Shown here piece by piece: positions 2,211 to 61,668 of a stretch of DNA of 64,000 bases (positions are counted from its first letter, which is position 1; every line of letters starts with the position of its first letter). Source of the DNA: Gemmatimonadota bacterium (GTDB lineage Bacteria > JBHIER01 > G020348925); NCBI GenBank assembly GCA_020348925.1, contig CP070758.1, forward strand, positions 1,444,469 through 1,508,468, in the 5' to 3' direction. Made by a program: the position numbers and the translations under genes. The notes under the pieces were generated by a model. It ran no database searches and was not told the origin of the DNA. It saw only the letters and a program-made list of their open reading frames with translations.

Positions 2211-5200
2211 TCACTTCATGTATATCATCCGCTTTGTGTCGACGAAGTCGGAAACCTCAATGCGATAGAAGTATATTCCGCTGGGAACCATATTTCCACT
2301 ACTGTCTCGACCGTTCCAGGTCACGGTATAACAACCGGGTTCCTGAACTTCATCCACCAGCGTCAGCATCTCCTGCCCGAGGACATTAAATACTCTGAGT
2401 CGCGTCAGCGCGGGTACACGTCCCTGTGGTATCTGATACCGAATAGCTGTCGAGGGATTAAACGGATTCGGATAGTTTGCAAAGAGCGCGGAGCTCTCAG
2501 GAGCTACAGGAGCACCCTTGGAAATTTCCGATCCTGTGTTCACATCCAGAGACCGTCCGATCATGTCGGCAATAATCACTTCCTCGAAACGGACTGCTGT
2601 CGAACCGGAAACCGGTATCAGCAAAATAGGTTCTTCTCCTGGAGAAATGTTGCCGCCGTTGAATCCATACAGCAGTATGGTCACAATCCCGTCCCTCGTT
2701 GCCCAAGCCACGTTCATTTGACGGCTCCGATCGGTCAACACCGGAGCACCAAAACAGCCGCTCCCTTCCACAGGACACAGCCTCAATTGAACCCCTCCGA
2801 CGGGAACGGACGATCCAATTGAAATGATCATGTTCCGGTTCTCCTGAAGCTCGTCGTTTTTCTCCGCAACCGTCACGTCAACGGGGGTCGAGGAAGACAC
2901 GGTTTTTGCCGTTCCGCCTCCACCGAGAATATGGTTCACAATGCACAGGACGTCGAGAATATTGACCGATCCATCACCGTTACAGTCACCCGACCAGCAG
3001 TGATCCCCTTCCATTATGGCACAACTGTCATTCAAAATCATGTTGACGACATCGAGTCCGTCAAGGATATCTATTGCGCCGTCGCCGTTCGCATCCCCCT
3101 GCTGTCGCTCGCACACGGTCAGCGAGAGATCTTGCGTATCCGAAGCGTGTACACTGTCAACCACCTGGACGGTAAAGTATGCCGTGAAGGGATCGTACGC
3201 TTCTGGTGTTCCAAAAATATCGCCTGTCATGGCATTCAGGCTTAGACCTTCTGGCAGCGAACCGCTGACAACGCTCCACGTATAGTGTCCCATCCCACCC
3301 ACAGCTTCAAGGTTGGCCGAATACGGAGCCTCGATAACGGCCTTTTTGAGTTGTGCTGTCGTAATTCTCAGGATCGGACTGTAGACAATGGTACTCTGAA
3401 AGATTTCGGACTCGTTTCCCGCCGCATCAATGTACCGCACGTACACGGTCTTGACGCCCGGTTCAGCGTTCCCTCCGTAACTCACGAGATCCCATTCGGC
3501 CTGCTCTTCGGCGTAGGGTTCGGGAGGGGACCAGGTTTCACCATCATTGCTGAATTGCATGGCCGCTATTCCTGACAACGCATCCTGAGCACCGAGTCCT
3601 GTTAAGGTAACGATCAGTGTATCCGTGGTCTGTGCCCCGTCCTCGATTGAAATCGTTCCTGCAACAGGACCACTGGCATCATAAAAGAGGGGGACGGAAG
3701 CGATATTCGTTTCGTTCACATTCCCGGCATTATCCTGAAGCCACAGATAGAACATGTGCTCACCTTCCCCGGCAATCTCCACAACGATCGGATTCTCCGT
3801 GATGAACTCGCCATCGGTATCCGACGAGGGAAGCTCATTCAGCCTGAAGTACCCTCCTGCGACACCCGATATATCCTCAGGATCGGTCCACGTCAGTGTG
3901 AAGACATGACTGTGCGTCCACCCCTCGGGCTCAACGGCGAGATCAATAGGAGCGTCCGGATCGGTCGCGTCGATTCTGACCGAAAAGTGATCGGTAGGTC
4001 CCCAGTTGCCTGCCCCGTCAACAGCCCGGCAGTGAAAATACCAGACACCGTCATCGACGTCAAAGTACTGTTGGGAGTCCTCAGGACCCTGGTTTGTCTC
4101 ATTCGGGATCAGATCAGGAACATTTGACAGAACAGAACTGAATCCTGCAATGCCGGAAAGATCGGACACGATGGTCCAGTGGATTCCAGGGTTCCGATCA
4201 CTGTACCAGGTCGATTCGGAAGGATGCGTCGAGGAAAATATTTCTGGCGCTTCGGGAGCGGACGTATCCTTCCTGAACAGGAAACCCTGGACATCCGGCT
4301 CGTACGCATGCGTCACAGTATTGCCAGCCTTATCGGCGACCCTGAGGCTGATCGCATTCTCACCATTTTCAAGAAGATCCCAATGTACTCCCCACTCGAA
4401 GGTGAAATCCGAAGACCGATCCTCTATGAAAACAGCATACCATTGACCGTTGCCAACGCGATAGGCGGCATAATCGAGAGGTGCATTGTCGCCCCAACCA
4501 AAATCGATATCTATGACGCCCCCGGGATTCGAAGCGTACCACTCAGTGGAAGAACCCATCTCAGGAGTATTGTAGATAATAGTCGGGCCGATGGTGTCCT
4601 TGTAAAACTGCCAGCTCCATTCGCCATGTTCTCCTGCCATGTTCCCTTCGGCATCATCAGCCATAAAATAGATGACATGATGTCCGTCGTCCAAACTTAC
4701 GAATCCTGGAATCTCCCACCAATCATCATCCCACGAGATCCCCTCCGCATTGATGAAAATGGGGATCCACGGTTCGGCGTAGGAGTCGATCTGATACCAG
4801 GCATCGTCAAGATCTTCATTGTCGTCGAAACCGAAATTGGAGAAAACAGGCGTTTCGGCGTAATACTGACCCTCGGCTTCGACGATCGCCTCCATGGTCG
4901 GCGGTTCGCTGTCCGGTGTCTCCTTGTAAAACTGCCAGCTCCACTCACCGCCGTGACCGACATGGTTTCCCGCATCATCCCGAGCTACAAAGTACAGTGT
5001 GTGACTGCCGTCACTCAATTCATGAAAACAGGGAAGTTCCCAGCCGTCACTGTCCCACGAGATCCCGTTTACATCGGCGAAGAGCACGGTCCACTCACCA
5101 CTGAACGAATCAACCTGATATCCGCCCTCATCGAGATCTCTATTATCCTCGAAGCCAAAATTGGAAAAAATCGGTGGGCCATCGTAATGCTGTCCCTCGG

Positions 5201-5224
5201 CTTCGACGATCGCCTCCATGGTCG
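2211..5224 (-). CDS. Large secreted modular protein, 5' truncated by gap: tandem 108-aa repeats, Ig-like domains, dockerin, cohesin-like domain, FlgD/T9SS-like C-terminal domain
   Basis: ORF is open into the N gap. 'LPEGLSLNAMTGDIFGTP' putative Ig domain; 'GDANGDGAIDILD...GDCNGDGSVNILD' dockerin; '[10 protein letters not shown]...SGIYFYRI...TKRMIYMK' C-terminus. Confidence 0.85.
4870..5224. repeat. Intragenic tandem repeat, 324-bp period (108 aa)
   Basis: Identical 31-mer ccctcggcttcgacgatcgcctccatggtcg at 4870-4900 and 5194-5224. Confidence 0.85.
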
Positions 5225-8069: not shown

Positions 8070-10427
8070 TCAAGGCGGGCAGGAACCGGTGCCAAATATG
8101 CAGTTGATTATTCCAAGAGCATCCAAAACATCCACACTTCCATCTCTGTTGCAGTCGGCCCGGCAATATCTGCTCATATCCGTTGCTAAGAGCGATATAT
8201 CAAAAATACACTGAATTACACCGACCACATCGATAACGTTCACTGACCCATCTCCGTTCACATCACCCAAGGCCCCACCCTCGCACCAGGCCCAGGCCGG
8301 ACGGCGGGTCTCGGCCAAAATTTCCCAAGACCCTGAGATGGACCGCATCTCTCCCTCGGAATACCACCAACTTCGACCACCATCAAGAGCATTTTCTCTG
8401 GCGAAAAACCGGCCCTCTGTCTGCTCGGTGGCCCGCACATGAAACCAAAAATCCCCTTCCACGTACAGGATATCAATGTACTCCCGCACATCGATCTCAA
8501 TTTGGTCCTGAGGTCCATCAACCCAGATTCCGAAGGGCTCGATGAGAGCCTCCCCGAAGGTGCTGTCATTGACCCCTTCGCCCAAGATGTATATCTCCAG
8601 AGGACCGCTCAATTCCACACCTCTCACGGAAATTCCGGTCAAAGCAATGGCCTCCCAGGAGATGTCAACAGCCGTGAAGCGTACTACCGGTCCGGAATTC
8701 GACTGAGCTTCAAAAAACGTCGTATCTGTGGAGAATCTGTCAAAATAGCCTAAGGTTACCCTCCAGGACTCGTACACATGTACAGGAGCAGGGGTAGTGA
8801 ATATATCATCATACGTTGGATAGAAATTTATAGCCATGATGTAAAAATTACCTGTGTCCACTGGAGTCCATTCAAAGGCAACCTGCGTTGTTTCACCTGC
8901 AGCTACCGTAAGATTTGGAAGTTCAAAAATCGAGTAAGGAGGATCGCCAACCACGTTTAATTCCTCGTCCAAAAGCACCCATAAAAGAGGTGCCAATTGA
9001 GCCGCATGCGATCCATGATTTACAATCTCCGTAGTTACAGGAGTGGGGTAATTTACAGAATTCGGAAATGGGACAATAATCCGTATGATTCGCACAACGT
9101 GCTCCCATTTAGGCTGTTGAAACAGAAGGACATTATCGACAAAAAGCCCCCGCCCATTGCACGGTATCCAATCACAGCCTCCACCTCCATCATCATCTCC
9201 GTCGGTGTGAAGCCGCCACCGAACCTTAACCTGCTGCCCGCAATAGGCATGCAATCCCAAACTATGGTCACGGTCCCAATTATAAACCTTCCACGTTGAA
9301 TCGTTATCGCCCCTCCCATAATCATAGAAGAGCGAAGACCACACCAAAAAATTGGACTCAGCCGTGGAGAGTTCCACATCAAAAAAATCCTCCAAAAGTC
9401 CATCCCCATTACCATCATAATCAGGAACCTCGACAAGGTTGTAAAAACTCGCCCGCGGGTATCCCTCCTCCGGCAAGGTGAAAATTGGGGAGACAAGGGC
9501 AGCATTGATGAGGGGTCGATCGTCGCAAACCATGCTGAAGCTGCCCTGCGTCCAGCCTTCCGGCGGATAATACGGATCACCGTACTTCTGATGAATGGCA
9601 CTATTGTCGTCCGTGATAGTCCAGAAATCTCCATGACAAGGATTTGAAAAAGTCATTCGGCCTGGCTCATGGTCGCCCCCATCATCGAAGAAGAGGGTAT
9701 CGCCGTCACCTGTGAGAACAATCTCGTCGACCCAAACTCCTGTGAAAAAATCGGTGAAGGAGTTGTAACAAACATCACTGACAAAAGTATATCGTATTTT
9801 GATCCTGCTGCTCTCAACATACTCATCGAGATGAAAAATCTCAGTCCACCACACATCGCCCAAACCCGTCCAGCCCGGTGTACCACTCTGCCCTCTGTAT
9901 TCGAAGGCCCTGAGCGTATCAACAGTGTATCCCCCTTCCGGAAAGAGGATGTGAAACGATCCCCCATCCTCTGAGAGAAATACGGCGGAGCCATCCCAAA
10001 CTTGCTCTTCCGGGCTTTCCGTATCCACTTTGTGCACAAACGAAAGCGTTAACGTCGTGATTCCCTCAGGGATCTCAATCTCCGGCGTCTCCAAAAAGTC
10101 CTCCCACAAATCCTGATATCCGCTCCCGACCGGTGTTTCTATGGCACAATAATACGAATGACCGTCATAGGCTCCGGTCGAAGTCACGTGCCAGTGTGGC
10201 TCGCAGGTGAGATCGACCGTCTCCCAGCCTTGGGGCAGCCCGTCCTCGAAATCGAAAAAAGCAAGGGTCTCTCCCCCCGCACTCGCAAACCTGCTCGAAA
10301 CCGTCTCCACCGATCTCTTCTCTCGATGGGATATGACGCTCCTACGATCACGGCCAAAGACATACTCCGTTGTACAAATTGAAGCAATGAGCACAAGAAG
10401 TCCCATAACGATAACTCTTCTTCTCAT
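8070..10427 (-). CDS. Secreted beta-sandwich protein with C-terminal dockerin
   Basis: Signal peptide; 'FFDFEDG..GW', 'GVWVDEI' and 'GLFVDNV' MAM/immune-inhibitor-A-like sandwiches; terminal 'GDVNGDGSVNVID...ADCNRDGSVDVLD'. Confidence 0.8.
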   Translation of the reverse strand: MRRRVIVMGLLVLIASICTTEYVFGRDRRSVISHREKRSVETVSSRFASAGGETLAFFDFEDGLPQGWETVDLTCEPHWHVTSTGAYDGHSYYCAIETPVGSGYQDLWEDFLETPEIEIPEGITTLTLSFVHKVDTESPEEQVWDGSAVFLSEDGGSFHILFPEGGYTVDTLRAFEYRGQSGTPGWTGLGDVWWTEIFHLDEYVESSRIKIRYTFVSDVCYNSFTDFFTGVWVDEIVLTGDGDTLFFDDGGDHEPGRMTFSNPCHGDFWTITDDNSAIHQKYGDPYYPPEGWTQGSFSMVCDDRPLINAALVSPIFTLPEEGYPRASFYNLVEVPDYDGNGDGLLEDFFDVELSTAESNFLVWSSLFYDYGRGDNDSTWKVYNWDRDHSLGLHAYCGQQVKVRWRLHTDGDDDGGGGCDWIPCNGRGLFVDNVLLFQQPKWEHVVRIIRIIVPFPNSVNYPTPVTTEIVNHGSHAAQLAPLLWVLLDEELNVVGDPPYSIFELPNLTVAAGETTQVAFEWTPVDTGNFYIMAINFYPTYDDIFTTPAPVHVYESWRVTLGYFDRFSTDTTFFEAQSNSGPVVRFTAVDISWEAIALTGISVRGVELSGPLEIYILGEGVNDSTFGEALIEPFGIWVDGPQDQIEIDVREYIDILYVEGDFWFHVRATEQTEGRFFARENALDGGRSWWYSEGEMRSISGSWEILAETRRPAWAWCEGGALGDVNGDGSVNVIDVVGVIQCIFDISLLATDMSRYCRADCNRDGSVDVLDALGIINCIFGTGSCPP

Positions 10428-10757: not shown

Positions 10758-13700
10758 TTATTTGAGAAGCGTCATCGTCTTCGTCGCTGTGAAATCCCCT
10801 GCCGTCAGTCTGCAGAAGTACGTACCACTGACGACGTCTTTTCCACAATGATCCCGACCATCCCACGTCACACTATAGTGCCCCGGATCTTGGACCCTAT
10901 CGACGAGAGTCCTCACCTCCTGCCCGAGGATATTGAAAAGCTTCAAGGTGACATGGGGTGGAAACCGATCACTGAGCACTGAATACTGAATACTGGTTGT
11001 CGAATTAAAGGGATTCGGATAATTTTCGATCAATGAGAATACAGGCTGCCCGCCAGATTCAAACCGCACAGGCTCTCCCGTCCCTTCAACGGCAAGAGAG
11101 CGGCCTTCCGCGTTTACTGCAAGTACCTCTTCGACATGGAATGCGCTCCCACAATCACCTTTCATAGCCCCCTTCAGGAAGAATACCGGGCCATCACCAG
11201 CAGGCAGAAAGCCGCCGTTCCGACTGTAAACAAGAACCGTTAAGCGACCGTCCCTGTCATTCCACCGCAGGTCCATGGAACCGCACCGTTCCGAAAGCTC
11301 GACAGCATGGAGAGTGAAAAGCCCGGTGTCATAGTCAAGCTCACATTGAACACCCGCAATCCCACTCGCATGATCCACCTCAAATAGAATACGTGCATTC
11401 TCTCCGAATTCACCCCTTGCCCCCCGAACCCCGATCTTCGCGAACGCCTTGTCACCATTTGCAGCGACCGGTGAAGCACCGCAAATGTTGTTGACCATGC
11501 TGACCACATCCATGACATCAATGACTCCGTCACTGTTGAAGTCGGCGGCCCAAAGTTCGGCCTCGGCAGGGGTGATGCTGCCCAGGATGATGTTCACAAC
11601 CCGGACAAGATCCACAACATCAATGCACCCATCGCAGTTCATGTCTCCCTTGCATCCTATAACAATGAGCCCATTGAGGCGCTCTATGGGCAAAGACCTT
11701 CCCTCTTCGTCAGACAGGATCACTTTCTGATACTCGATCCAATATGTTTGCCCTGCCTCAGCCGCCTCATCTATGGTGAAGCGGAAGTGAGCAATGGCCC
11801 CTCTTCCGGACGGTATGACATGGCCGTTCGTGTCCGAAATGAGAAGAATAATACGACCCGGTTCCGGCATACTCCATATCATGGAGTTCATACTCTGGGA
11901 TCTCTCACTCGGAAGAATCTGGACCGGGGAAAAGATTGCACTGTGAAAGTGAAGTTCTACCTGGACGCCGGATACAGGGACGGGTTTTTCGGTCTCGTTA
12001 TCCATCTCAAGATCGATCACAACAGTATCCCTCGGAAAGCCATACGTCAGAGGTGTCCCGACGTATATGGGGGCAGTCTCGACACGCATCGTCACCGGAA
12101 TGGTCACACTCCCGTTCTCAGGATCGTCGCTCGAAACGGTGATCGTTGAAGAATATTCGCCCTCAGCCAAGGAAGCACTGCTGAGGGTAATCATCACATC
12201 CGCGTTTTGATTGGCCCCCACTGTCCCTGAAAGTGGTGCCACAATGAGCCAACTCACCATTTCACCGATTTCAAAGGACAGTGGGGCATTACCCAAATTA
12301 GTCAGGGAAAGCTGTACGGTCAACTCCTCCGCCTCCGAAAGAACTCTCTCAATGGATGAGGCACTCACGCTGATCTGAGGAGCCAATCCTGTACCCGTGA
12401 GGTTTACACATATCGTCTCCTCGTCCTCGTCGCTGCAGGATATCGTAAGGAGACCTGACCGGATACCCGCCGTTGAAGGTACAAACGCCACCGCCACAGA
12501 GATCGACGCTCCCGGTGAAATTGTACAGGGAAAGTTTGGAGAAAGAATTTGAAAATCCTCAGACTCTGATCGAACGGAGGATATTTGCAAATCAATCCCG
12601 CCCGAGTTCCGCATTGAGAAACTCCAACCTCCTGTTTCGCCGAGGGGGACAGGGCCAAAATCATGGTCTCTCACTGCAAGCTCAACCTCAGCTGCAGAAG
12701 GTGGTACGGAACCGAATCCGTCAACTGTCATGGAGATAAGGCTTCTGTCCGGGTCATTGCTGGACAGGGTGAGTTGTCCGGATTTCAGTCCCTCAGACTG
12801 CGGACGAAAACGAACCGTCACTTCAATGGAACCACCGACTGGAACTTCCTGAGGAAAATCTGGAGCCGCAATGTCGAAATCGGAATGATTTGAAACTATT
12901 GAATATACCCTCAGGCTCCCAGATCCAGTATTGAAAATGGTGAACTGCCATGCCGAGGTCTCATTGACCGGAACGTTTCCAAAATCGTGGCTTGTCCCAG
13001 AAAGCTCGATATTGGACTCAGTGTCCGCCCCCACGCCTGTCACGGATACAACGAGCGGATTTTCATTCGGATCGTCGCTTTCAATACGGAGTTGCCCCGA
13101 TACACTTCCTGCAGCTGCAGGGGTGAAAGCGATCGCGACCTCGAGAATACCCCCCGGGATCACCGTTTGCGGAAAGCTCGGGGACGCAACGACGAAGGCA
13201 TCAGAATCGGAAACGATATGCATCACCATTAATAGTGCTTCTCCGTCATTGTGAAGGGAGAAAATTTCGTGGGCAGTTGCATTGACAGAGACCGTTCCGA
13301 AATGAACGCTTGTGACCGAGGATCGAATATCAGGGTATACTCTGCCGCTCACCAGCACATCAGCCCTCATCACGCCGGCCGAATTTCTGACGTCCCGAAC
13401 CGCCACGCTCGTCGCAATCCCTTGATAATTCAGGCTGTTAGGTTTGGAGTGCTCATCCCAGGTGCGATTGCCGGTCGTTCCCGGGAAATAATCGCCCGCA
13501 TCACCACGGTTAAAATTGGCGTACACATTCAAATGATTCAATCCGTCCGCTTCCTCAAGATCGACCAATTTATGGAGTTCGTCATTGTTATGGGGTACGC
13601 TTTCATCAATATGCCAGATAAGCAGACCGCTCCCTGGCAGGAGCGTATCGAAGCCTTCCTTTTGGCGGTTCGAGACAATAAAATACTCGTGTCCAGCATT

Positions 13701-19056: not shown

Positions 19057-19072
19057 ACAAAAGAAGATTGAT

Positions 19073-49091: not shown

Positions 49092-52000
49092 ATGAAAGTC
49101 TCTCGTTTTTGTTTTTCGATGTTCACGCTTCTCACAACCTTCATGCTGTGTTACCGAGCCGAAGCTCAATGGCCGGGTGAATTTTCCTGGCAGGACTCCC
49201 AGTATCCTGATGAAAGTATTGTGCAACATAAGCCTCAAGCGAATACAGTATATTCCTCAACGAATTCTGAAAGTCTCACCGAACTTGAGCTGGACAATCT
49301 CATCGCCTTCACCAGACTCATGGGCTATGTTCGATTCTTTCATCCCAGTGACGAAGTGGCCGTCACAAACTGGGACGAGCTCTGTCTTCAGGCCGTTCCG
49401 ATCGTCAGAGGTGCCCTCGATCCAACGGATTTAGCTCTGAAGCTGCAGTCGTACTTTGCACCGATCGCCCCCTCGGTTCGTGTATATCCCACGGCAACCG
49501 ATCCCGCAGATATCCCAACCATGATCCCGCCGAGCGGGAACGATTCATTATATATCACCCAGTGGTACCACGAGAGTGTCGGGTTCGACTACGCCCATTC
49601 ATGGTTTTTGCAGCATGGTATTCCACCGGAGAGTTCGTGCATAAGCCAACGTATCTCGGAGCGGCTGTTCCATGCCTCAGTGCCTCAGGGCTTTCACGAT
49701 CCTGAGACGCCCTTCGTGAGAGACCTGGAGGGATCGGTGACGTGCATGGTTCCTCTATCGCTTTTCGGCACCAGGGAGGGGACCTTCCCCCCCTCAACCC
49801 TGCCTCATCCCTGGACGACAATGACCGATCCTTTTGATTACTCGGGGAACGACCAGGCCGTGCGACTGGCATGCGTATCGATCGTCTGGAATGTGTTTCA
49901 ACACTTCTTTCCGTATTTCGACGTTATTGAAACCGATTGGCACCAGGTACTCCGAGAGACATTAGCCAGGGCTGCAGTTGATGCAAATGAGCGGGATTTT
50001 GCAAACACACTCCGTCTTCTCCTCGTTCCTCTCGAGGATGGACATGGTACTGTATTACAACAAGATATGATGACGGGGGGAATGTTTTCGCCTCGTCTTA
50101 AAGTGAATTGGATCGAGGATCAGCTCGTCGTAACGTTTGTCGATACGACCATCGTGCCCAGGATACGACTGGGGGATGTCATTGTCGCTATCTATGGGGT
50201 ATCAGCGAGGCAGGTTGTGGAAGAAAAAGAGAAATATATATCGGGATCGCCCCAGCGGAGACGTCTCATGGCCACAGAGAGAATCTTAACCGGTGATCCG
50301 AATACGTCCGTTACCCTGGATGTCCTGTCCTTTTCAGGTGAATCATTTACAATTACGCTGAGGCGTGATCAATATTACACTCATCTTGATGGATTCGAGG
50401 AACCGCGGCCGGATAAGTTTGACGTGCTCGGCGATAACTTCCATTATATTGATATGACACGAATTTCCACGATGGAAGAATACGAGGAACGGTTTCCTAA
50501 ACTACAAAATGCGGATGGTCTGATTTTCGATCTGCGGGGATCTCCGGGTGGACCGTTCATCATCGGTCATCTCATAGACAAACCAGCCCACTGGTCACCA
50601 ATGTATATACCCGCAGTCACGTACCCGGATCGCGAGAATTTTTCATTTCTCTGCACATCCTGTGGATGGGTTGTGCCTCCCGAATATACGCTGAGTAAAA
50701 TAAAGAAGGTGTTTCTGACAAATGCGGGTGCAATGAGTTATGGTGAGACAAATATGGAAATCATTGCCTCCAATCGGATAGCTGAAATTGTTGGGGAGCC
50801 AACGGCCGGTACGAATGGCCTAGCAAATCGTCATTATCTGATAGGCGGTTATTATATTTTGTGGACATGTATAAAAGTGCTCAAGGGTGATGGCAGCCAA
50901 CTCTACGGTATAGGCGTCACACCGACACATCCGGTGTCACGTACCATTGAAGGTGTGGCCCATGGACGGGACGAAGTCCTTGAATATGCGATGGACCTGT
51001 TGGGGGTGCATGCTGTTAGCGCTGTACCCAACACAGGTCATGCGCCATTGACCGTTCAATTGACCTTTGATCCCTCGCATCTCATCATGCCGGTTTCCTC
51101 GTTACGCTGGGATTTTGAGAATGACGGTACCACCGATTCCCGTGAGCAGCAGACGGAGTGGACGTACGAGCAACCCGGAGACTACACTATATGTTTAGGT
51201 GTAGAAGGGAGTAACAGCTTCGATACGTTAATGTACAAGGACTTTATCCGCGTCTTCGATGGTGAAAGCGCTTTGCTGTTTGATGGGAAACAGAGCCTCG
51301 TCTCATGTCCCGCTGCACCATCTTTGAATGTGACCGATGCGTTGACAATAGAGGCGTGGATCAACCCCCAGGGGTGGGGAGAATTTCCTCATCTTGGTTT
51401 GGGTAGAGTCGTGGACAAAGGGAGCATATCCCTGTACCTCGTCGAGTTCTACGCTCCATTTCATGATCACAGTCTTGTCATGGAGCTGCACCATGAGAAC
51501 GGTATGACGAGTTCTTCCTACACGCCAGCGGAATCCATTCACCTGAACGAATGGCAGTATCTTGCAGTCAGCTATGACGGTGAGCATAGTATAAAAATGT
51601 ATATCAACGGCGCTGAACAGGTCCTCACCCACACAGGGACGCCCTCAGGACCTGTTCAGGACAACAGCAATATTAATCTGATTTTCGGAAATCTCCCCGA
51701 TCTGACCGGGACGTTTCACGGCCTCATCGATGATGTACGGTTGTGGAATACTGTCCGAACCGGAGAAGAGATCCGGGAAAACATGAATTCGTATCTGGCC
51801 GGAACAGAACCGGATCTGGTGGGGTACTGGCCGATGAATGAAGGAAACGGGGATACGATCTTTGACAGCTCCGATAAAGGATCCGATGGTCACATCAGCG
51901 GTGCCCTGTGGCGACAGGGGAGGCAATTTCACCCCGAATCCTTCGACACGGACGAGGACGGTATTGTGGACTGGGATGACAACTGTCCCTGCATCTCCAA

Positions 52001-52634
52001 TCCCGATCAGAAGGACTCAGATGAAGATGGCCTGGGTGATGCCTGCGAATCCCTCCGGGGCGATGTGGACGGCAATTGCTCTTTCGATATTCTGGACGTT
52101 GTGAAAGTCATCAACATCATTCTGGCTCAACTGACGCCAACAGATTACGAGCGTGCGGCCGGCGATTGTGACCGGAACGGCTCGCTCAATATTCTTGACG
52201 CTCTGGGCGTCGTCAACCTTGTCCTGGGTATTGGTGACTGCCCGCCCCAGGGATGCAAACCCGTATGGAACGACGAGGTCATGGCCTATCTCAAAGGACT
52301 GCAATCCCACTTCACACCGGAAATTTTTGACCGACTCATGACGACATTGCATCGCATCGATTTTGCACCGTCACACTTTTCTCTGGCCCAAAATTATCCC
52401 AATCCCTTTAACCCGGAGACGTCGATTGAATTCGCTCTCCCCCGGACAGCTTACATAAGGTTGAGTGTCTACAACATTCTGGGCCGGGAGGTAAAGGTCT
52501 TAGTGGATGATCGGATGGAGGCCGGATATCATGCGGTGAGGTGGGAGACATCAAACATGCCCAGCGGGGTCTATTTCTATCGTCTGAGGGCAGGTGATTT
52601 CTCAGCAGTGAGAAGTATGGTTTTAATGAAGTAA
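49092..52634 (+). CDS. S41 family peptidase with PKD, LamG, TSP3, dockerin and T9SS/FlgD-like C-terminus
   Basis: FDLRG, 'MSYGE', '[10 protein letters not shown]'; paralog of the preceding gene; AGGAGG RBS. Confidence 0.88.
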
Positions 52635-52650: not shown

Positions 52651-55308
52651 ATGCACACAAGTATACTTTTTGTAATGCTCATCTCTCTGGCGTTGATGGC
52701 AGTCCCGACGAGGGGAACTGTCATCCATGTTCCCGGAGATCAAACCTCTATTCAAGGGGGAATCAATGCCGCGGTGGACGGCGACACCGTCCTCGTTGCG
52801 CCCGGAACCTACTCCGAAAACATCTCTTTTCGCGGCAGAAACATCGTTCTCGCCAGTCACTTCATCTTAAACGGCGATCCGGATTTTATCGAAACAACCA
52901 TCATCGACGGCAGCAATCACACCGATCCCGATACAGGCAGTACTGTCCTGATCATTTCCGGTGAAGATTCGACGGCCGTGCTGGAGGGATTCACCGTGAC
53001 CGGCGGTACAGGGACCATCTGGTGGGACACACACGATTTGCAGTGGCATCGGGAAGGCGGCGGGATACTCATCGAACTCTCCTCCCCAACCATCAGGAAT
53101 AACCATGTCGTGGACAACGAGGCCGTCAATCTCTCCGGCGTTATTGCCGCCGGTGGAGGCGGTATTCGCTGCATGGACGGAAATCCTCTGATTGAGAACA
53201 ATCTCGTCATGCACAACAGGGGAACCCACGCCGCCGGGGTCGAGATGCTGTTCTCCACCGGCACTATAAGAAGGAACGTCATCGTTGAAAACAGCGGAGG
53301 ACAGCTTTGGGGTGGTGGCGGTTTCTTAAAGTATTTCGGAGGGACCACCCTCTTAGAGAACAATACCATCGCCGGGAATTCATGCACTGGGGGCGGAGAT
53401 CCTCCGGCAGGCAGGGGAGGTGCCATGGTAGTCTGGGGAGGTGTCATTATCGCCCGCAACAATATCATATGGGGGAACACACAGGAAGTTGGGGATCAGA
53501 TTCATTACGCTGTAAACAGGAGCTCAGACATAAGCTACAACGATATCGAGGGTGGCTGGGAAGGTGTGGGCAACATAAATGAGGATCCTTTGTTCGCGGA
53601 TGACGGGTATACGCTCTCCGAGAACTCACCCTGCATCGATGCCGGTGATCCCAACAGCCCTCTGGACCTTGATGGGACGAGGGCGGATATAGGAGCATTC
53701 ACATACTATCATCTTGACACCCCGTACATACGGATTGTGCACTGTATTTTGGATGACAGCCAGGGGAACACCAATGGAAATGCCGACGGCGGTGAGACGG
53801 TAGATCTCGTTGTGACATTGATCAACACCAGCTTGGATGCAACCGGGGTCTCAGCCGCACTTTCGACCATCGATCCGGATGTCGAATTGATTCAGGACAC
53901 AGCCACCTTCGGGGACCTGCCACGTGATGAATGCTCTCTCAACGACAGCAATCCCTTCTCGTTCTCGGTTGACCAATATGCCGTCCCCCACCGGAGCATG
54001 TTCTACCTGAACATTGCGGCAGATGGCGGGTACGAAGCCTCCTATAGCTTTGAGCTCACCGTCGGCACAGCCACCATTCTCCTGGTGGACGATGATGAGG
54101 GGACCTCTTACGAGAGGTGTTACTTCGACGCCCTGGAGACCAAGAATATCGCTCCGGGGGAATGGAATGTCGCAGCCAAGGGTTGCCCCACAGTCCCTGC
54201 ATTACTGCAATACGGAACCGTCGTCTGGCTCACCGGAAACGACCGGGAGAGCAGCCTGACTTCGGAAGAGCAGGGGGCCATTGCTGCCTTGCTGGATGGT
54301 GGGGGAAATCTTTTCATGGCGGGATCGAATATTGGATACGATCTCGTGGAGGACGGTTCTTCCGGTGATGCGGCTTTTTACGCCAATTATCTTCATGCCG
54401 AGTATATCAGTGACTCGATTGAGGAGACCTTCCTGTCCGGAGTCGAAGGGGATCCCATCTCCGGACAGTTCTCGCTTCTTTCATTGGATGTGAATCAGAC
54501 GTCTCCCAGTGTCATTGCTCCTCTTGAAGGTGCGAGCACGGTGCTCACCTACTATTCCTCGCAGGAGGCGGCAGCCATAAAATTCGACGGGGAGCACAAG
54601 GTTGTCTACTCTGCTGTCGGTTTTGAGGGTATTCGGTCCATGGGTGGAAATGATGATGTGGTTCGGGGGACACTGTTGAAGAATGCGCTCCAGTGGTTCA
54701 GCTATGTTCCCAGTCGAGGGGATGTCAATCAGGACGGCGGGACGGACATATTGGATGTGCTGGCGGCCGTAAACATCATTCTGGGCGCGATACAACCTTC
54801 GGGACCGCAGGACTGGGCAGCCGACTGTACCGGAGATGGAGCGGTCGATATTATTGACGCCCTGGGCATTGTGAACGTCGTCCTCGGAATTGGCGAATGT
54901 GTGCCCTCGACCTCCAGGCCCGTAATCACCGCGGCGACAATCCGGTTCTGCGAATCTCTCGAAAACCATCTCTCGCCCGAAATGTTCGCGCAGTTCATGG
55001 CTCTCGTCAATGCCGAGACATCATTACCGACCGGCCACAATCTGGCCCAGAACTATCCCAATCCCTTCAACCCTGAAACAACGATTCGATTCACCATACC
55101 CCAGGTTTCGCACACCAGCCTGACTATTTATAATATAACCGGGGAGCTTGTCAAAAAACTGGCCGACGGTGAATTACAGGCCGGATATCATTCCGTCACC
55201 TGGGATGGAAAAGACACATATTGTCTCAAGGTAAGCTCGGGAGTCTATTTTTACACCATGAAGACTGAGAAGTTCACTCGTACTCGAAAAATGTTGATCG
55301 TGAAATGA
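52651..55308 (+). CDS. Secreted right-handed beta-helix protein with dockerin and FlgD-like C-terminus
   Basis: 'SIQGGINAAVDGDTVLVAPGTY.ENI', GGG/NN repeats, 'SPCIDAGDP...DG.RADIGA'. Confidence 0.85.
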   Translation: MHTSILFVMLISLALMAVPTRGTVIHVPGDQTSIQGGINAAVDGDTVLVAPGTYSENISFRGRNIVLASHFILNGDPDFIETTIIDGSNHTDPDTGSTVLIISGEDSTAVLEGFTVTGGTGTIWWDTHDLQWHREGGGILIELSSPTIRNNHVVDNEAVNLSGVIAAGGGGIRCMDGNPLIENNLVMHNRGTHAAGVEMLFSTGTIRRNVIVENSGGQLWGGGGFLKYFGGTTLLENNTIAGNSCTGGGDPPAGRGGAMVVWGGVIIARNNIIWGNTQEVGDQIHYAVNRSSDISYNDIEGGWEGVGNINEDPLFADDGYTLSENSPCIDAGDPNSPLDLDGTRADIGAFTYYHLDTPYIRIVHCILDDSQGNTNGNADGGETVDLVVTLINTSLDATGVSAALSTIDPDVELIQDTATFGDLPRDECSLNDSNPFSFSVDQYAVPHRSMFYLNIAADGGYEASYSFELTVGTATILLVDDDEGTSYERCYFDALETKNIAPGEWNVAAKGCPTVPALLQYGTVVWLTGNDRESSLTSEEQGAIAALLDGGGNLFMAGSNIGYDLVEDGSSGDAAFYANYLHAEYISDSIEETFLSGVEGDPISGQFSLLSLDVNQTSPSVIAPLEGASTVLTYYSSQEAAAIKFDGEHKVVYSAVGFEGIRSMGGNDDVVRGTLLKNALQWFSYVPSRGDVNQDGGTDILDVLAAVNIILGAIQPSGPQDWAADCTGDGAVDIIDALGIVNVVLGIGECVPSTSRPVITAATIRFCESLENHLSPEMFAQFMALVNAETSLPTGHNLAQNYPNPFNPETTIRFTIPQVSHTSLTIYNITGELVKKLADGELQAGYHSVTWDGKDTYCLKVSSGVYFYTMKTEKFTRTRKMLIVK

Positions 55309-55360
55309 GTTCACAAAAAAGAGACGAACTCATATTTTTTCAAAAAGGAGAACAACGATA

Positions 55361-58318
55361 ATGAAGAATCTTCGTTTTTTCGCTGTTCTGGCACTCTCTT
55401 TCTGTATTCTTGGTAGCGGTCATACAATTACCGAGGGAGAGAGACCCGACTTGGTGAGTATCTCCCGAAACGATCCGTCAGTGGTATCTTTACTCAAGGA
55501 TCGTGGTATTCCAGTTCACCTTGTATTGAAGGAATGGTTTCTTGCTCAAGCTGCCCCGGCCGATCTTGCGCAACTCGAAAAGGCCGGGATAGAGTACAAA
55601 GTTCTGGACAAGGAAGCCTGGTCAGATCCGTATTACCTCATCACGAGACCTCGTGGAAAAGAAATCGGTGAAATCCCGGATGTGACACAGGTTGTGTTCA
55701 AAACCGGTACGGAAGCCCTGGTGAAGAGTCCGCCGAAACAAGCTTTTGAACTGGGACGGTTTGGTTTTCATGTGACCAGAATATCTTCGAAACCGCAGCC
55801 ACTTTTTACGAACCGGACCAGAGATACGGACCGCATTTTGGAGAAATTTCAGGCCGGGCATCGGACGGACGATGTCATCGGCGTCCTCGTGAATCAGGTC
55901 TCTCAGGAGATCATGCGACCACACGTGCAGAGATTGCAGGATTTTCAGACGCGATATTATGCCTCCGATTCCCTCAACGCGGCTGCTCAGTGGCTCTTCG
56001 ACCGCTTCGTCGAGTTCGGATACAGTAATGTCCAATTCGACGAGTTCGAGGAACCGCTGGATCATACACCGGTCAAGAACGTGATCGCGACAAAGCCGGG
56101 AGTTGTCCATCCGGACAGTGTCATCATGATGGGTGCTCACTACGATTCTGCCGTTATCGACGGGACGGATCCGTATGTTTGGGCACCAGGGGCCGACGAT
56201 AACGCTTCCGGGGTTGTGGGTGTATTGGAAGCGGCCCGTATTCTGGCCGACGTTGATTTCGATTGCACGATCAAATTTGTCTGCTGGAGTGCTGAAGAGT
56301 GGGGTTATTTCGGGAGTGAGCACTATGCGGAACGTGCATACAATCAAGGTGAGAAGATAGGGCTGTATATCAACTATGATATGCTGGGTTATATTGATGA
56401 GGATGATCCGGTGAGGGATATTGATATTGGCTGGAATCCCACCGGCCAGCCCTACGCCGATCTGATGGCCGAGATGGTCACCACATACACGAGTCTGGTG
56501 CCAATAACTTATCCTGCAGCTCCGGTCGGCAGCGACTACGGCCCCTTTATGGCCTACGGCTACGATATCCTCAGTGTCATGGAGAGTGATCCGTATCCGT
56601 TTATACATTCCGCCGGGGATATCATAGACCGCATGAACTTCTCTTACATGTGTGAAGCCGTCAAAATGGGCCTGGCCACGTTGGCCACGGTAGCCGGTCC
56701 ACCGGCATCGGTGTCTCTTCCCCATCCCATGATTGCACTTGAAAGTTACTCATGGGACGATGACAGTGAGGGAGGAAGTGTTGGAAACGGAAACGGCTTC
56801 TTTGATACCGGTGAAACAATTGACATTTCCCTGTCACTCCGCAACATTGGCGACACGCCGGCCGACAATGTCACGGCGTACCTTCTCACCGATGATCCCT
56901 ACGTAACCCTTTCGGACAAAGTGGTGTCTTGTGGCCATATTCCCGCCGGCGGCACCGGCACAGGTCAGGATCAGTTTCGGTTCTCCATATCGGAGGCTTG
57001 CCCGAACGGCCATTTCTTAGATTTTTCTGTCGAAGCGCATGCGGCAGGAGGATATGAATGGATGAGCTACTTCTCAGTTCGTGTCGTTCAACCTACTGTT
57101 TGGTACATAACCTTTAACCTCCAGGAGACGGTTGGTAATGAAAATGGCGCCGTTGATCCGGGTGAGACAGTGAATTTGTCTGTATTCCTGGGAAACGACG
57201 GACTGAGAAATACCTCCGGAGTAACAGCCACCCTGGCAACCGATGATCCTGATGTACTCATCGTTGACGGTGATATCGGTTTCCCCGATATGGACGTTCA
57301 CGATATCAAGGAGAACGAGGCCGAACCTTTTGTCCTCTCTGTGGCGGAGGGAGCAATACCGCGTACTCTCTATTTCACACTGAACGTCTCCGAAGGAGAG
57401 GGATACTACCGCACAGAGATACCCATTCAGGTTTCTATCGGACAGAGCACCCTGCGGCTTGTAGCAGATGACGGTGGTGCCGGGTACACAGGGTACTATA
57501 TCGATGCTCTTCAGAATATCGGTGTCCCTTACGAAATCGATGAGATCGAGGGTGTGGTAATGCCCCATTCCGAAGATCTCAGTAATTACTCAGAGGTCAT
57601 CTGGTTCACGTCAGGTGAGGAGAGCAATACCTTGACCCCTGATGATCGGAGTGATCTGGAGATCTTTCTCGAATCCGGTGGAAAACTCATTCTGTCCGGG
57701 GCCATGATCGGGTATGAGGTAGGCAATACGTCCTTCTACAGGAATTACGTGCACGGGAGATACATCTCTTTCATAACGTTGCTTCACCATCTCAATGGTG
57801 CTCCCTCCAATCCGGTCGTGGGCTCGCAAGACATCACACTGGCTTCTCGAGGATTCAACGGCCAGGGGTTCACTGGCGAGATCGATCCCATCAGTCCAGC
57901 CGTGCCACTGTTCACCTATGACCGGAGTACGGACCAAGGACCGGGTATTATCCGATCAAGCGGGAGTGCGGCATTGGCAGTGGAGACATCCGCTTACAAG
58001 GTTGCCTATTTCTCCTTTGGATTGGAAGGTATAGAGCCCCTAGAGAGCAGGGCTCAAGTCCTTGAAGACATACTTTCGTGGTTCAAGAAGCCGGGCATTG
58101 ACAAGGGTGATGTGAATGGCAACGGCGTGACGGACATCATCGATGCGGTTGTGACCGTGAACATTGTCCTGGGTATGTATCAACCGGACGAGCAGGAGGT
58201 GGAACGCGCTGATATGAATTATGACGGAGCCATCGATATCATCGACGTCGTCAGAATCGTCAACGCTGTGCTTGGGACGAGTGGAAAAGCTGCCCACAGT
58301 TATGCCACGGATCTGTAG
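55361..58318 (+). CDS. M28 family aminopeptidase with terminal dockerin
   Basis: GAHYDS, PGADDNASG, AEEWG, NYDM, GSDY, HSAGD. Confidence 0.9.
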   Translation: MKNLRFFAVLALSFCILGSGHTITEGERPDLVSISRNDPSVVSLLKDRGIPVHLVLKEWFLAQAAPADLAQLEKAGIEYKVLDKEAWSDPYYLITRPRGKEIGEIPDVTQVVFKTGTEALVKSPPKQAFELGRFGFHVTRISSKPQPLFTNRTRDTDRILEKFQAGHRTDDVIGVLVNQVSQEIMRPHVQRLQDFQTRYYASDSLNAAAQWLFDRFVEFGYSNVQFDEFEEPLDHTPVKNVIATKPGVVHPDSVIMMGAHYDSAVIDGTDPYVWAPGADDNASGVVGVLEAARILADVDFDCTIKFVCWSAEEWGYFGSEHYAERAYNQGEKIGLYINYDMLGYIDEDDPVRDIDIGWNPTGQPYADLMAEMVTTYTSLVPITYPAAPVGSDYGPFMAYGYDILSVMESDPYPFIHSAGDIIDRMNFSYMCEAVKMGLATLATVAGPPASVSLPHPMIALESYSWDDDSEGGSVGNGNGFFDTGETIDISLSLRNIGDTPADNVTAYLLTDDPYVTLSDKVVSCGHIPAGGTGTGQDQFRFSISEACPNGHFLDFSVEAHAAGGYEWMSYFSVRVVQPTVWYITFNLQETVGNENGAVDPGETVNLSVFLGNDGLRNTSGVTATLATDDPDVLIVDGDIGFPDMDVHDIKENEAEPFVLSVAEGAIPRTLYFTLNVSEGEGYYRTEIPIQVSIGQSTLRLVADDGGAGYTGYYIDALQNIGVPYEIDEIEGVVMPHSEDLSNYSEVIWFTSGEESNTLTPDDRSDLEIFLESGGKLILSGAMIGYEVGNTSFYRNYVHGRYISFITLLHHLNGAPSNPVVGSQDITLASRGFNGQGFTGEIDPISPAVPLFTYDRSTDQGPGIIRSSGSAALAVETSAYKVAYFSFGLEGIEPLESRAQVLEDILSWFKKPGIDKGDVNGNGVTDIIDAVVTVNIVLGMYQPDEQEVERADMNYDGAIDIIDVVRIVNAVLGTSGKAAHSYATDL

Positions 58319-59250: not shown

Positions 59251-61668
59251 ATGCGAAAGAAATGGATAGGCTGGTATCTTGCTCTGGTTCTCATGACCAA
59301 TGTCACCCATTCCGAGGTCAGGAAGCTCGTTCGAGTAGACGTGAGCAATCAACCGCAAGCCACAATTATTGATTTCATGCGACTTCATCCTGATATTATC
59401 TCACGCGGGCAACAGGGACGATCCGTGGATGTGCTTGCCCCGGCATCGCAGTTGGAAAAAATCACCGATCTCGGTATTCCCCTCGAAGTTCTGGTGGATG
59501 ACGCCGATGAGTATGCTCAAACCTTGAAACAACAGGGATATTTCGATGCTTTCCATTCATATGAAGAGATGTTAGCCGAGATGCGGACTGTCGAAGCGAA
59601 CCATCCTGAAATCGCCAAACTCTATGACATCGGTGACAGCTGGGAGAAAACTCAAGGGTTGGCGGATCGAGACATCTGGGCCATCAAAATCTCTGATAAC
59701 GTGAATAGAGAGGAACCACAAGAACCGGAAGTGTTGTACATAGGCTGCCATCACGCTCGGGAGATTATTACGCCGGAAGTCCTACTCTATTTCATGGACT
59801 ACCTTGTGGATACCTACGGTACCGAGCCTGAAGTAACATATCTTGTCGACAATCGTCAGCTGTGGTTCGTACCGATGCTCAATCCTGACGGCCACGACTT
59901 TGTCGTGAGTTCGAGGAGGTATACTGAAGATATGTATTGGCGGAAAAACAGGCGTGACAACGGCGATGGAACATTTGGAGTGGACCTGAATAGAAACTAC
60001 GGTTACATGTGGGGTTTTGACGATATCGGCTCCAGCCCGGACCCGAGCAGTTTGCTCTATCGAGGCACACACCCTTTTTCTGAGCCGGAAACCCAGGCAA
60101 TTCGAGACTTGGTGACGGCCCACCATTTCGTGACATCACTCTCATATCATGCCGCTGGCGGATTGTGGCTGTATCCCTGGATGTATATCCAACAAAACAC
60201 TCCGGATCATGATACCTTCGTGGCCATCGCCGAGAGTTGTGTGGCCTACAATGGCTATGAACCCGGCAACCCGGTGTCGGAAACCATTTACACCTGCAGC
60301 GGTAATTTTATTGACTGGATGTATGGCGAACAGACAACGAAATGTAAAACATATAACTTCGATCCTGAAGTGGGGTACTCTATGTATCCGGACACCTCTC
60401 GCATAGTGCCCTATTGCCGGGATAACCTCGGCCCCAATTTATACGTCGCGAAAGTGGCGGAAGAGTATGCACTCCCGTTCATTTCTTACAATGAATACAA
60501 GGTCACTGAAATGCATGGAAATCGTGATGGGATTTTTGATCCCGGTGAGACGGTTCATCTGACGTTCACACTGTTCAACATGGGTTATGTATCCACTGGC
60601 CTCGTGGGATCCATGTCGACTGAGGATCCGGCCGTAGATTTTATGAAACGGACAGCGTATTTCGGGAACGTGGACTTCCGGGAGATGGCTTCAAATGAAC
60701 AAGATCCTTTTGTGTTCACAATCGAAGCTGATACGAAAAGCCACGTTTCCAGTTTTGTCTTGACCATCACAGATGATAGTGGATACACAACCAGTGAAAG
60801 TCTCGATGTGAGTATCGGACCAGCTACCGTTCTTGTTGTCGACGACGACCTCGGAGAGGAATATGAGCAGTATTATACGGAAGGGTTGTCTCAAAATTAC
60901 CCTTTCGATATGTGGGAGATTGAAACGCAGGGGATTCCTTCGGAGACGCTTTCCCATTACGAAGCCGTAGTCTGGTTCACCGGCGATGACAGAACCACCT
61001 CCCTTACGCCAGGGGAACAGACAGTTCTTCAAGAATACCTCGACAGCGGTGGCAACCTTTTTCTCACAGGGCAGAATATCGGATACGATCTCGTCGAGGA
61101 GGGATCGGAAGGAGATGCTCTGTTTTACCGCACGTACCTTCGGGCAGACTATGTAAGCGATGACTCACATGAGAACGTTTTAACCGGCGTCCCTGGGGAC
61201 CAGATCTCCGGAGATTTTACATTCTTGACCGTGGGAGCAGGAGGTGCCGGAAATCAGACCTCGCCCAGCAGTATTGAACCTCTGTCCGGGGCAACCGCAG
61301 TCTTCACCTATTACGGATCGGCCCATACGGCGGCCGTCAAATACAGCGGTGCATTTAAAGTGGTTTACTTCGCCTTCGGCTATGAAGGAGTGGGCGCCTT
61401 CGGGACAGGCGCTGCCAGATTGAGATCTTCCCTCATGGACAATATCGTCGCCTGGTTTCGGTATGAGCCGCACAAGGGGGACGTCAATGAGGATGGGAAC
61501 GTCGACATCCTTGATGTGGTCGAGGTGGTAAACATCATTATAGGGTTGGTGGAACCGACAACCGCTCAATTTTGGGCTGCCGATGTCACCCAAGATGGGA
61601 GTATCGACATTCTGGATGTCGTGAACATCGTGAACGTTATTCTCGGGCCAACGGTATCGGTACGATAA
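59251..61668 (+). CDS. M14 family zinc carboxypeptidase (carboxypeptidase T-like) with terminal dockerin
   Basis: HHARE, WRKNR, GVDLNRNY, FSEPET, SYH. Confidence 0.92.
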   Translation: MRKKWIGWYLALVLMTNVTHSEVRKLVRVDVSNQPQATIIDFMRLHPDIISRGQQGRSVDVLAPASQLEKITDLGIPLEVLVDDADEYAQTLKQQGYFDAFHSYEEMLAEMRTVEANHPEIAKLYDIGDSWEKTQGLADRDIWAIKISDNVNREEPQEPEVLYIGCHHAREIITPEVLLYFMDYLVDTYGTEPEVTYLVDNRQLWFVPMLNPDGHDFVVSSRRYTEDMYWRKNRRDNGDGTFGVDLNRNYGYMWGFDDIGSSPDPSSLLYRGTHPFSEPETQAIRDLVTAHHFVTSLSYHAAGGLWLYPWMYIQQNTPDHDTFVAIAESCVAYNGYEPGNPVSETIYTCSGNFIDWMYGEQTTKCKTYNFDPEVGYSMYPDTSRIVPYCRDNLGPNLYVAKVAEEYALPFISYNEYKVTEMHGNRDGIFDPGETVHLTFTLFNMGYVSTGLVGSMSTEDPAVDFMKRTAYFGNVDFREMASNEQDPFVFTIEADTKSHVSSFVLTITDDSGYTTSESLDVSIGPATVLVVDDDLGEEYEQYYTEGLSQNYPFDMWEIETQGIPSETLSHYEAVVWFTGDDRTTSLTPGEQTVLQEYLDSGGNLFLTGQNIGYDLVEEGSEGDALFYRTYLRADYVSDDSHENVLTGVPGDQISGDFTFLTVGAGGAGNQTSPSSIEPLSGATAVFTYYGSAHTAAVKYSGAFKVVYFAFGYEGVGAFGTGAARLRSSLMDNIVAWFRYEPHKGDVNEDGNVDILDVVEVVNIIIGLVEPTTAQFWAADVTQDGSIDILDVVNIVNVILGPTVSVR

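Follow-up and report, generated by a model that had tools for sequence, protein, structure and literature searches.

Assembly of extracellular proteins through the pairing of cohesin and dockerin modules is understood almost wholly from Gram-positive degraders of plant fibre, and the largest described cellulosome system has 78 cohesins and over 200 open reading frames (ORFs) with a dockerin. When 305,693 genomes were surveyed for glycoside hydrolases fused to dockerins and for scaffoldins, 33 species were reported, mainly of Acetivibrio, Ruminococcus, Ruminiclostridium and Clostridium (PMC11557425). Extensive dockerin and cohesin proteins occur in anaerobic methanotrophic (ANME) archaea (PMC9012536), mucinolysomes of gut Bacillota are a specialised cohesin-dockerin variant (PMC12997984), and in Ruminococcus bromii the Amy4 protein, in which an enzyme is joined to a cohesin and a dockerin, forms multimers and binds its own dockerin; dockerin-bearing peptidases of that bacterium also bind an anchoring cohesin (PMC4611034). 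Among published ideas, the nearest to the system considered here comes from Candidatus Stygibacter (Cloacimonadota), for which in-silico work suggested a cellulosome-like complex with dockerin-bearing peptidases and a scaffoldin carrying a type IX secretion system (T9SS) tail (PMC8542988). This report concerns a stretch of 64,000 nucleotides (the window) of a Gemmatimonadota bacterium, positions 1,444,469 to 1,508,468 of contig CP070758.1, in which ten genes encode dockerins. These genes are probably local members of a genome-wide cohesin-dockerin surface display system that is built on the T9SS. The genome is a single contig of 5,038,017 bp, of which the window is a 64 kb sample.

An earlier note on the window had claimed a duplicated calcium-loop dockerin in ten ORFs, and this holds in every case: Dockerin_1 (PF00404) is matched in 10/10 by Pfam, and two loops are seen in each translation. 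Nine matches exceed the curated cut-off of 22.9 bits; the tenth, in ORF 45878, scores 22.3 bits, 0.6 below it, and is recognised with an independent E value (i-E) of 2.2e-21 by a hidden Markov model (HMM) that was built from the genome's own hits and run over all stop-to-stop ORFs of at least 60 residues. In the window this HMM finds precisely the ten modules and none besides. In ORF 2211 the Pfam match covers positions 2-29 of 57, seemingly half a dockerin, and the genome-derived HMM is matched over 1-64, both repeats. In the aligned modules a helix comes after either of the two D-x-N-x-D-G-x-(I/V)-(D/N)-h-h-D loops, and they so have the tandem EF-hand-like loops of ~22 residues, with D/N at 1, 3, 5, 9 and 12, that define a dockerin; D21 and D55 are invariant, G9, D10, D44 and D48 nearly so, and a structural model described below has three helices in the dockerin. 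The hydrophobic pair previously seen before the last loop Asp is also present in the window modules. Genome-wide, a regular expression recognises two loops in 179 of 302 modules, and the pair is kept in 161 of these 179 in loop 1 and in 168 in loop 2; it occupies loop positions 10-11, which we take to be the recognition positions of type I dockerins. Mean pairwise identity among the dockerins is 45%, and grouping at 45% identity places 202 of the 278 full-length modules together, a uniformity that fits a few shared specificities; the M28 peptidases, the S41 peptidases and one cassette type have dockerin groups of their own. Chance EF-hand matches were considered and rejected, for the profile speaks against them, as do the duplication within the module and the parallel expansion of cohesins. 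A cysteine at position 2 of the second calcium loop and another in a G-x-C-x-P motif after the last helix are found in 143 of the 302 dockerins, among them those of window ORFs 8070, 39539, 42804, 49047 and 52651. This pair, to our knowledge unusual for dockerins, is a possible disulfide staple.

Three of the ten genes lie on the minus strand. ORF 2211 (2211..5219) encodes an immunoglobulin-like (Ig-like; Big_13, He_PIG) surface protein with a dockerin at 2901-3122, a divergent cohesin at 2517-2864 and a T9SS sorting domain at about 2211-2468, as read from Pfam, TIGR04183, our own HMMs and hhalign. ORF 8070 (8070..10427) encodes a secreted protein of an unnamed family with its dockerin at 8073-8291; only an InhA-like MAM match is seen upstream of it, a motif scan found no HExxH, the N-terminal region resembles in a structure atlas look-up only unnamed modules of T9SS cargo from other FCB (Fibrobacteres-Chlorobi-Bacteroidetes) phyla, and the gene belongs to a cluster of 10 paralogous ORFs. 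ORF 10758 (10758..14711) encodes an M6 metallopeptidase (92 bits by Pfam, 220 bits by TIGR03296, with an HEFGH motif) followed by Ig-like domains, cohesin 1 (11676-12080), a dockerin (11457-11672), cohesin 2 (11082-11453) and a sorting domain at about 10758-11015. The other seven are on the plus strand. ORF 39539 (39539..42745) and ORF 42804 (42804..45722) both combine FG-GAP, PKD, LamG and TSP3 domains with a dockerin (42134-42349 and 45111-45326), a spacer, which in the former is helical and 50 residues long, and a sorting domain, at about 42488-42745 in ORF 39539. Two S41 serine peptidases with PKD and LamG domains follow: ORF 45878 (45911..49024; S41 at 34.4 bits) with a C-terminal dockerin at 48776-48991 and no sorting domain, and ORF 49047 (49092..52634; S41 at 42 bits), which also has TSP3, a dockerin at 52035-52250, a spacer and a sorting domain. 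ORF 52651 (52651..55308) carries a right-handed beta-helix, a stalk module, a dockerin at 54694-54909, a spacer and a sorting domain. ORF 55361 (55361..58318) is of the M28 aminopeptidase family (113 bits), with the stalk module and a C-terminal dockerin of an M28-specific subtype at 58082-58297, and ORF 59227 (59251..61668) is an M14 zinc carboxypeptidase (231 bits) with the stalk module and a C-terminal dockerin at 61453-61665. The starts 45911, 49092 and 59251 are internal ATGs of the stop-to-stop ORFs 45878, 49047 and 59227, and they yield better signal peptides than the ORF starts. Judged by eye, 9/10 of the proteins have signal-peptide-like N-termini; the N-terminus of ORF 2211 is unreadable because its 5' end enters a stretch of N. 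Five of the ten are thus peptidases, as was thought, but the M6, two S41, M28 and M14 members amount to four families and two catalytic classes, not to four classes.

The stalk, a segment of about 340 residues between catalytic domain and dockerin (residues 405-745 of ORF 59227), is common to ORFs 52651 and 55361 and has no Pfam name. Its predicted structure resembles unnamed parts of T9SS cargo (template modelling (TM) score 0.56-0.65) from Zixibacteria, Calditrichota, Cloacimonadota, Fidelibacterota and Ignavibacteriota in the structure atlas look-up. ORF 55361 also has eight tandem paralogues elsewhere, at 2574147-2600583 of the contig, each of about 940 residues with M28, stalk and dockerin, and all eight share its M28-specific dockerin subtype.

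The cohesin-like domains that had been noticed in two ORFs are likewise real, two modules in ORF 10758 and one divergent module in ORF 2211. Cohesin 1 of ORF 10758 scores 28.2 bits with Pfam Cohesin (PF00963), above the curated cut-off of 24.1 bits; cohesin 2 is recognised solely (i-E 1e-10) by the genome-derived cohesin HMM, which was made in one round from a seed of 33 Pfam hits; and the divergent module in ORF 2211 aligns with a 62-sequence cohesin profile at an hhalign probability of 97.4% (E 9.5e-12). The earlier note had asked whether such segments model as cohesins, and cohesin 1 does: AlphaFold2 (AF2) gives the nine strands of the cohesin fold (predicted local distance difference test (pLDDT) 96.9, predicted TM score (pTM) 0.87), and a Foldseek search of the PDB with this model returns 88 matches at E<=0.001, the top matches listed being all type I cohesins (TM 0.80-0.86, probability 1.00). 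The 331-residue Coh-Doc-Coh (cohesin-dockerin-cohesin) segment of ORF 10758 is also modelled with confidence (pLDDT 91.3, pTM 0.77; low only at residues 203-207), from a shallow alignment of 31 rows. In such cassettes the linkers between cohesin and dockerin are mostly 8-13 or 28 residues and those between dockerin and cohesin 7-25 residues. When cohesin 1 and the ORF 59227 dockerin, both entered as alignments, were predicted as a complex, without controls, the score was 0.13 where the mark is 0.32, which speaks neither for nor against their pairing.

Both modules are greatly expanded in the genome as a whole. Our own HMMs find 302 dockerin modules in 295 ORFs, which take up 13.6% of genome bases, at least 160 cohesin modules in 96 ORFs, and a C-terminal sorting domain (CTD) on 261 ORFs. 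The cohesin count is a lower bound, since the HMM missed the module of ORF 2211. Pfam, applied to the six frames of the genome, gives at least 148 dockerin matches (150 of 527 candidates scored) and 81 cohesin matches, 73 of them over the cut-off. The module orders are few and fixed: a lone dockerin (170 ORFs), dockerin then sorting domain (65), cohesin then sorting domain (20), dockerin-cohesin-sorting domain (17), cohesin-dockerin-cohesin-sorting domain (13), cohesin-dockerin (10), and three (7) or two (6) cohesins followed by the sorting domain. The Doc-Coh-CTD cassette, with linkers of 7-25 residues, is found in 33 ORFs. Scaffoldin-like ORFs, all of them outside the window, have 3-6 cohesins interspersed with Ig-like domains and end in a sorting domain. 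At one further site (contig 4080164-4080334) a strong dockerin match of 54 bits contains an in-frame TGA, which may mark a broken gene or read-through.

The sorting domain, scored by TIGR04183 (cut-off 23 bits) and Pfam Por_Secre_tail, ends six of the ten window ORFs in its T9SS type A form (2211, 10758, 39539, 42804, 49047 and 52651); by the same two models none was found in ORFs 8070, 45878, 55361 and 59227, in which the dockerin is the extreme C-terminus. The earlier note had overlooked this domain, and the anchoring model has been changed on that account. Genome-wide the domain is skewed to the cohesin proteins: it occurs on 73/96 cohesin ORFs (35/41 of those with cohesins only) versus 104/295 dockerin ORFs. 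The gap from dockerin to sorting domain is 48-53 residues in 62 of the 66 ORFs in which the two are neighbours. This spacer of about 50 residues looks helical by sequence and follows a pattern ...SL..(H/Y)LS.E.F..FM.L...; in the window it lies at 42350-42487 (ORF 39539), 45327-45464 (ORF 42804), 52251-52376 (ORF 49047) and 54910-55050 (ORF 52651). Parts of the T9SS are present in the genome: a SprA homologue (SprA_N at 153 bits, over the cut-off), a full-length PorU sortase (738 bits, cut-off 420) and, directly downstream of the latter, a PorV-like gene at 190 bits, under its 250-bit cut-off.

The dockerin proteins carry a cargo in which peptidases are the largest enzyme class. For a census of this cargo the 271 dockerin ORFs with at least 80 residues upstream of the dockerin were grouped in 144 clusters, the 24 ORFs with shorter upstream parts standing outside it; representatives of 119 clusters and all members of two heterogeneous clusters holding window ORFs, 178 ORFs in all, were scanned and stand for 246 of the 271, 25 singleton clusters lying outside the scan. 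Peptidases account for 43 of the 246 (11 of these assigned by paralogue clustering only): M28 9, C25 7, M14 5, S41 5, M1 5, S8 4, C1 3, M6 3, M64 1 and M56 1. Further peptide-bond hydrolases are possible among the S12-like beta-lactamase folds (5), the DJ-1/PfpI (2) and transglutaminase-like (2) proteins and the 10-member cluster of ORF 8070. The statement that no glycoside hydrolase accompanies the dockerins is correct for the window, where Pfam finds none in any ORF, but does not extend to the genome, in which five dockerin ORFs carry GH13, GH31, GH57, GH99 and GHL10 domains, the first three being alpha-glucan families. Peptidases thus outnumber glycoside hydrolases about 8:1, and no cellulase family (GH5, GH9, GH48, others) was found among the 178 dockerin ORFs scanned. 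Other carbohydrate-related matches are a few lyase-like beta-helix, DUF4962 and heparinase-C proteins, and the remaining cargo includes esterases, nucleases, phosphatases and many non-catalytic proteins (FG-GAP ~30, LVIVD 7, LRR, Omp28-like, Ig-like), as well as a LamG-linked cluster of 39 dockerin ORFs. Also found with a dockerin are two peptidyl-arginine deiminases of the Porphyromonas type, at contig 2611318-2613246 and in one paralogue, and a multi-Kazal protease inhibitor at contig 346729-348345.

In the proposed mechanism the cohesin proteins would leave the cell via the T9SS; these include scaffoldin-like proteins, in which there are up to 6 cohesins, as well as enzymes or adhesins whose C-terminus is a Doc-Coh-CTD or Coh-Doc-Coh-CTD cassette. 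The PorU sortase would cut off the sorting domain and fix the cohesin proteins to the outer-membrane surface. Dockerin proteins, comprising the ~170 lone-dockerin ORFs and others of the Doc-spacer-CTD type, would then plug into the cohesins in a calcium-dependent manner, and proteins with both modules, such as the M6 peptidase of ORF 10758, could also chain to one another. The outcome would be a cell-bound coat with endo-, amino- and carboxypeptidases as the largest enzyme class together with FG-GAP/LamG and other binding modules and a few alpha-glucan hydrolases, esterases, nucleases and phosphatases, in effect a protein-scavenging analogue of the cellulosome in a diderm bacterium.

The phylum is represented in the comparison set by two species genomes, the present one and a fragmented one of the same family (G001), and the expansion is found in both, the second having at least 116 matches to dockerin and, at E<=1e-6, 44 to cohesin. 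Among 39 genomes of other phyla any dockerin match is found in 14, with a maximum of 20. In the second genome ORF 10758 has a full-length orthologue (53-67% identity) that shares its tail and cassette. Homologues of the M6 protein at 33-41% identity, from 11 loci in other lineages such as Neomarinimicrobiota, Eisenbacteria, Latescibacterota and Krumholzibacteriales, retain the sorting domain in 8 of 11 and have a dockerin or cohesin in none, which argues that the two modules are an added layer and not a needed spacer. It looks as if this lineage had put dockerin and cohesin, as an extra layer, on a T9SS exoproteome of the ordinary FCB type.

The earlier note had pictured the ten window proteins as an extracellular protein-degrading complex. 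Its elements stand, the modules being real and the set rich in peptidases and poor in glycoside hydrolases, but the ten as a self-contained complex do not: assembly on the window's own cohesins is contradicted by the fact that only 2/10 carry cohesins and that the families and cassettes are spread over 295 ORFs. One might nevertheless suppose that the window is a co-regulated locus for one dedicated extracellular protease complex held by its own cohesins, given that in the six-frame ORF listing seven of the ten (39539-61668) point the same way and are closely spaced, that endo-, amino- and carboxypeptidase genes are adjacent, that two ORFs do have cohesins and that dockerins are 2.6-fold enriched (10 in the window against a genome mean of 3.8 per 64 kb). 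This is very improbable. Three cohesin modules face ten dockerins and all three sit in cassettes beside the dockerin of their own protein; every window family has paralogues elsewhere, such as the eight tandem M28-dockerin genes at 2.57-2.60 Mb and the 39-member LamG-linked cluster; 5.9% of sliding 64-kb windows have at least 10 dockerins and the densest hold 23; the window dockerins span at least four sequence groups, with five in the genome-wide main group; and the multi-cohesin scaffoldin-like proteins are encoded outside the window. A look-up of RNA sequencing runs over 52651-61668 of the window returned none.

It may be asked instead whether the modules pair at all. Dockerins could be calcium-binding stabilising or spacer modules, or bind some other ligand, and cohesins could be Ig-like spacers of T9SS cargo. 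TSP3 calcium-binding repeats often lie just upstream of the dockerin, the cysteine pair of 143/302 dockerins could simply staple the fold, and non-cellulosomal dockerins are widespread and mostly untested (PMC9012536). We nonetheless regard the lack of pairing as quite unlikely: the two modules expanded together in both genomes of the phylum, the cohesin models match in Foldseek cohesins that were solved in complex with dockerins, the multi-cohesin ORFs with a sorting domain are laid out like anchoring scaffoldins, positions 10-11 of both loops are kept as a hydrophobic pair in a presumed recognition role, and the M6 homologues dispense with both modules and keep the sorting domain. More subtle is the suggestion that in the cassettes of ORFs 10758 and 2211 the flanking cohesin or cohesins hold the dockerin in cis, making a rigid stalk above the anchor, so that only lone dockerins pair in trans. 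The very short, fixed linkers, the pTM of the Coh-Doc-Coh model, too high for three independent domains, and the conservation of the cassette in the orthologue of the second genome favour such a stalk; against these stand the model itself, which gives no contacts and hence no packing face, the shallowness of the alignment behind it, and the R. bromii Amy4 cohesin, which recognises the dockerin of its own protein and yields multimers in trans (PMC4611034). It seems to us rather unlikely.

The display system on the T9SS is accordingly the reading that we prefer, and several points count against it. Cohesin-dockerin binding, surface anchoring and the proteolytic role are what we infer from the modules and their company. 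Pfam did not find PorP/SprF or GldM in the genome, a result that says little as the control genomes are also without a match over the cut-off. The cohesin counts by our own HMM may include non-binding Ig-like look-alikes as well as miss divergent modules, and the folding of Coh-Doc-Coh as one confident unit means that the modules of the cassettes may be occupied in cis. Catalytic residues were checked for the M6 peptidase only, the S41, M28 and M14 enzymes being known by family match. Finally, the ~170 dockerin-only ORFs are without an evident outer-membrane route, since they have no sorting domain.

The question thus raised is by which route the many dockerin proteins without a sorting signal exit. 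A crude signal-peptide score is positive in 140/162 of such lone-dockerin ORFs of at least 300 residues versus 144/400 control ORFs. The single Pfam secretin match of the genome lies in a pilM-pilN-pilO-SPOR-secretin cluster, which indicates a type IV pilus-type machine, and no separate type II secretin was seen in the Pfam secretin search. In some bacteria proteins are also exported by the machinery of type IV pili, and there is room for export by such a machine or for hitch-hiking, in which lone-dockerin proteins would bind sorting-domain cohesin proteins in the periplasm and cross as folded complexes via the SprA translocon. The latter is a speculative proposal to which we give little credence; it derives from the signal-peptide scores, the sole secretin in a pilMNO-type cluster and the skew of the sorting domain to cohesin proteins. 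If true, the cohesin-dockerin pair would serve as an adaptor for export in addition to its part in anchoring at the surface. In a milder form of the idea, Coh-Doc-Coh-CTD proteins might polymerise into a surface lattice that holds lone-dockerin enzymes.

Other genes of the window surround those for the dockerin proteins. Between two groups of dockerin genes lies a complete phosphate-uptake neighbourhood (16279-30630) with genes for a PhoU-like DUF47 protein, a PHO4 transporter, an OmpR-type response regulator, sensor kinases, two porin O/P-like proteins, PstS, two Pst permeases, PstB and PhoU; the ORF for the response regulator (18377-18964) matches the DNA-binding domain over no more than positions 2-41 of its 77, and ORF 22242-22703 is a partial PstS-like piece. 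A 4Fe-4S protein and an aldehyde:ferredoxin oxidoreductase are encoded at 30743-33561 and subunit 2 of the glycine-cleavage P-protein at 6482-7999; these fit amino-acid fermentation, which would suit a peptidase-rich surface. Amid the dockerin genes are an HlyD/DarC-like periplasmic adaptor and two DarD/LolD/MacB-like ATP-binding cassette (ABC) ATPases (37139-39357 and 58454-59116), all matched under the NCBIfam cut-offs, and no matching permease ORF of at least 150 residues was found in the window. The flanking ORFs, both on the minus strand, are secreted-looking: ORF 1-2115, which continues beyond the window, has FG-GAP, TSP3 and FIMAH domains, and ORF 61742-63985 is a DUF7901 protein whose 3' part enters a stretch of N. 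Our own HMM finds no dockerin in either, and the DUF7901 tail, lost in the N stretch, cannot be judged.

Compared with known systems, the present one shares with the clostridial and ruminococcal cellulosomes the duplicated calcium-loop dockerins on enzymes, the nine-strand cohesins, several per scaffoldin-like protein, the occurrence of some adaptor-scaffoldin-like proteins with both modules, and a large repertoire. It is not a true cellulosome, which was considered and rejected: a multi-cohesin scaffoldin (3-6 cohesins) exists in the genome and not in the window, but no cellulase family is seen on the dockerin ORFs scanned, and a scan of 9 multi-cohesin ORFs found no family of carbohydrate-binding modules (CBMs) at E<=1e-5. 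The host, a diderm, comes from another and barely sampled phylum; anchoring would use a T9SS sorting domain and PorU where cellulosomes use SLH (S-layer homology) domains or a Gram-positive sortase; peptidases are the largest class; the counts by our own HMMs (295 dockerin ORFs, 160 cohesin modules) are higher; and half of the dockerins have the cysteine pair. In this diderm, whose phylum has two known species, the two modules thus outnumber those of the largest described cellulosome, and they are coupled to the T9SS and loaded mainly with peptidases. If the binding is true, the cohesin-dockerin pair would be a general surface-assembly toolkit and not a cellulose speciality, the coat would be a model for protein digestion by particle-attached bacteria, and protein engineering would gain a large set of new, possibly disulfide-stapled cohesin-dockerin pairs.

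Candidatus Stygibacter is likewise an FCB-type diderm, in which peptidases (S8, C25) and GH18/GH57 enzymes bear dockerins at the C-terminus and for which a degradation of polypeptides and polysaccharides was proposed (PMC8542988). However, it has a handful of dockerin enzymes and one scaffoldin of 3,755 residues with CBM2/CBM3 (PMC8542988), in place of the hundreds of modules, 96 cohesin ORFs, recurring Doc-Coh-CTD and Coh-Doc-Coh-CTD cassettes and CBM-free scanned scaffoldin-like ORFs described here. R. bromii Amy4 also unites a catalytic module, a cohesin and a dockerin in one protein, with possible enzyme-to-enzyme chaining; it is an amylase of a Gram-positive host with sortase anchoring and 26 dockerin proteins, and its binding has been measured (PMC4611034), whereas ours is an M6 peptidase that has a cohesin on either side of its dockerin and ends in a T9SS tail, and its binding is conjectured. 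The ANME archaea and the mucinolysomes also use the pair beyond cellulose degradation and have scaffoldin-like proteins with a dockerin and several cohesins, but their lineages, envelopes and cargo differ (an archaeal S-layer context; mucin glycosidases), and for neither is a coupling to the T9SS described there (PMC9012536, PMC12997984). In the literature searched, outside of which most subscription journals lie, there was no report of a system this large or of these cassettes. It is thus the scale and the recurring cassettes that are new here, and the peptidase load also stands out.

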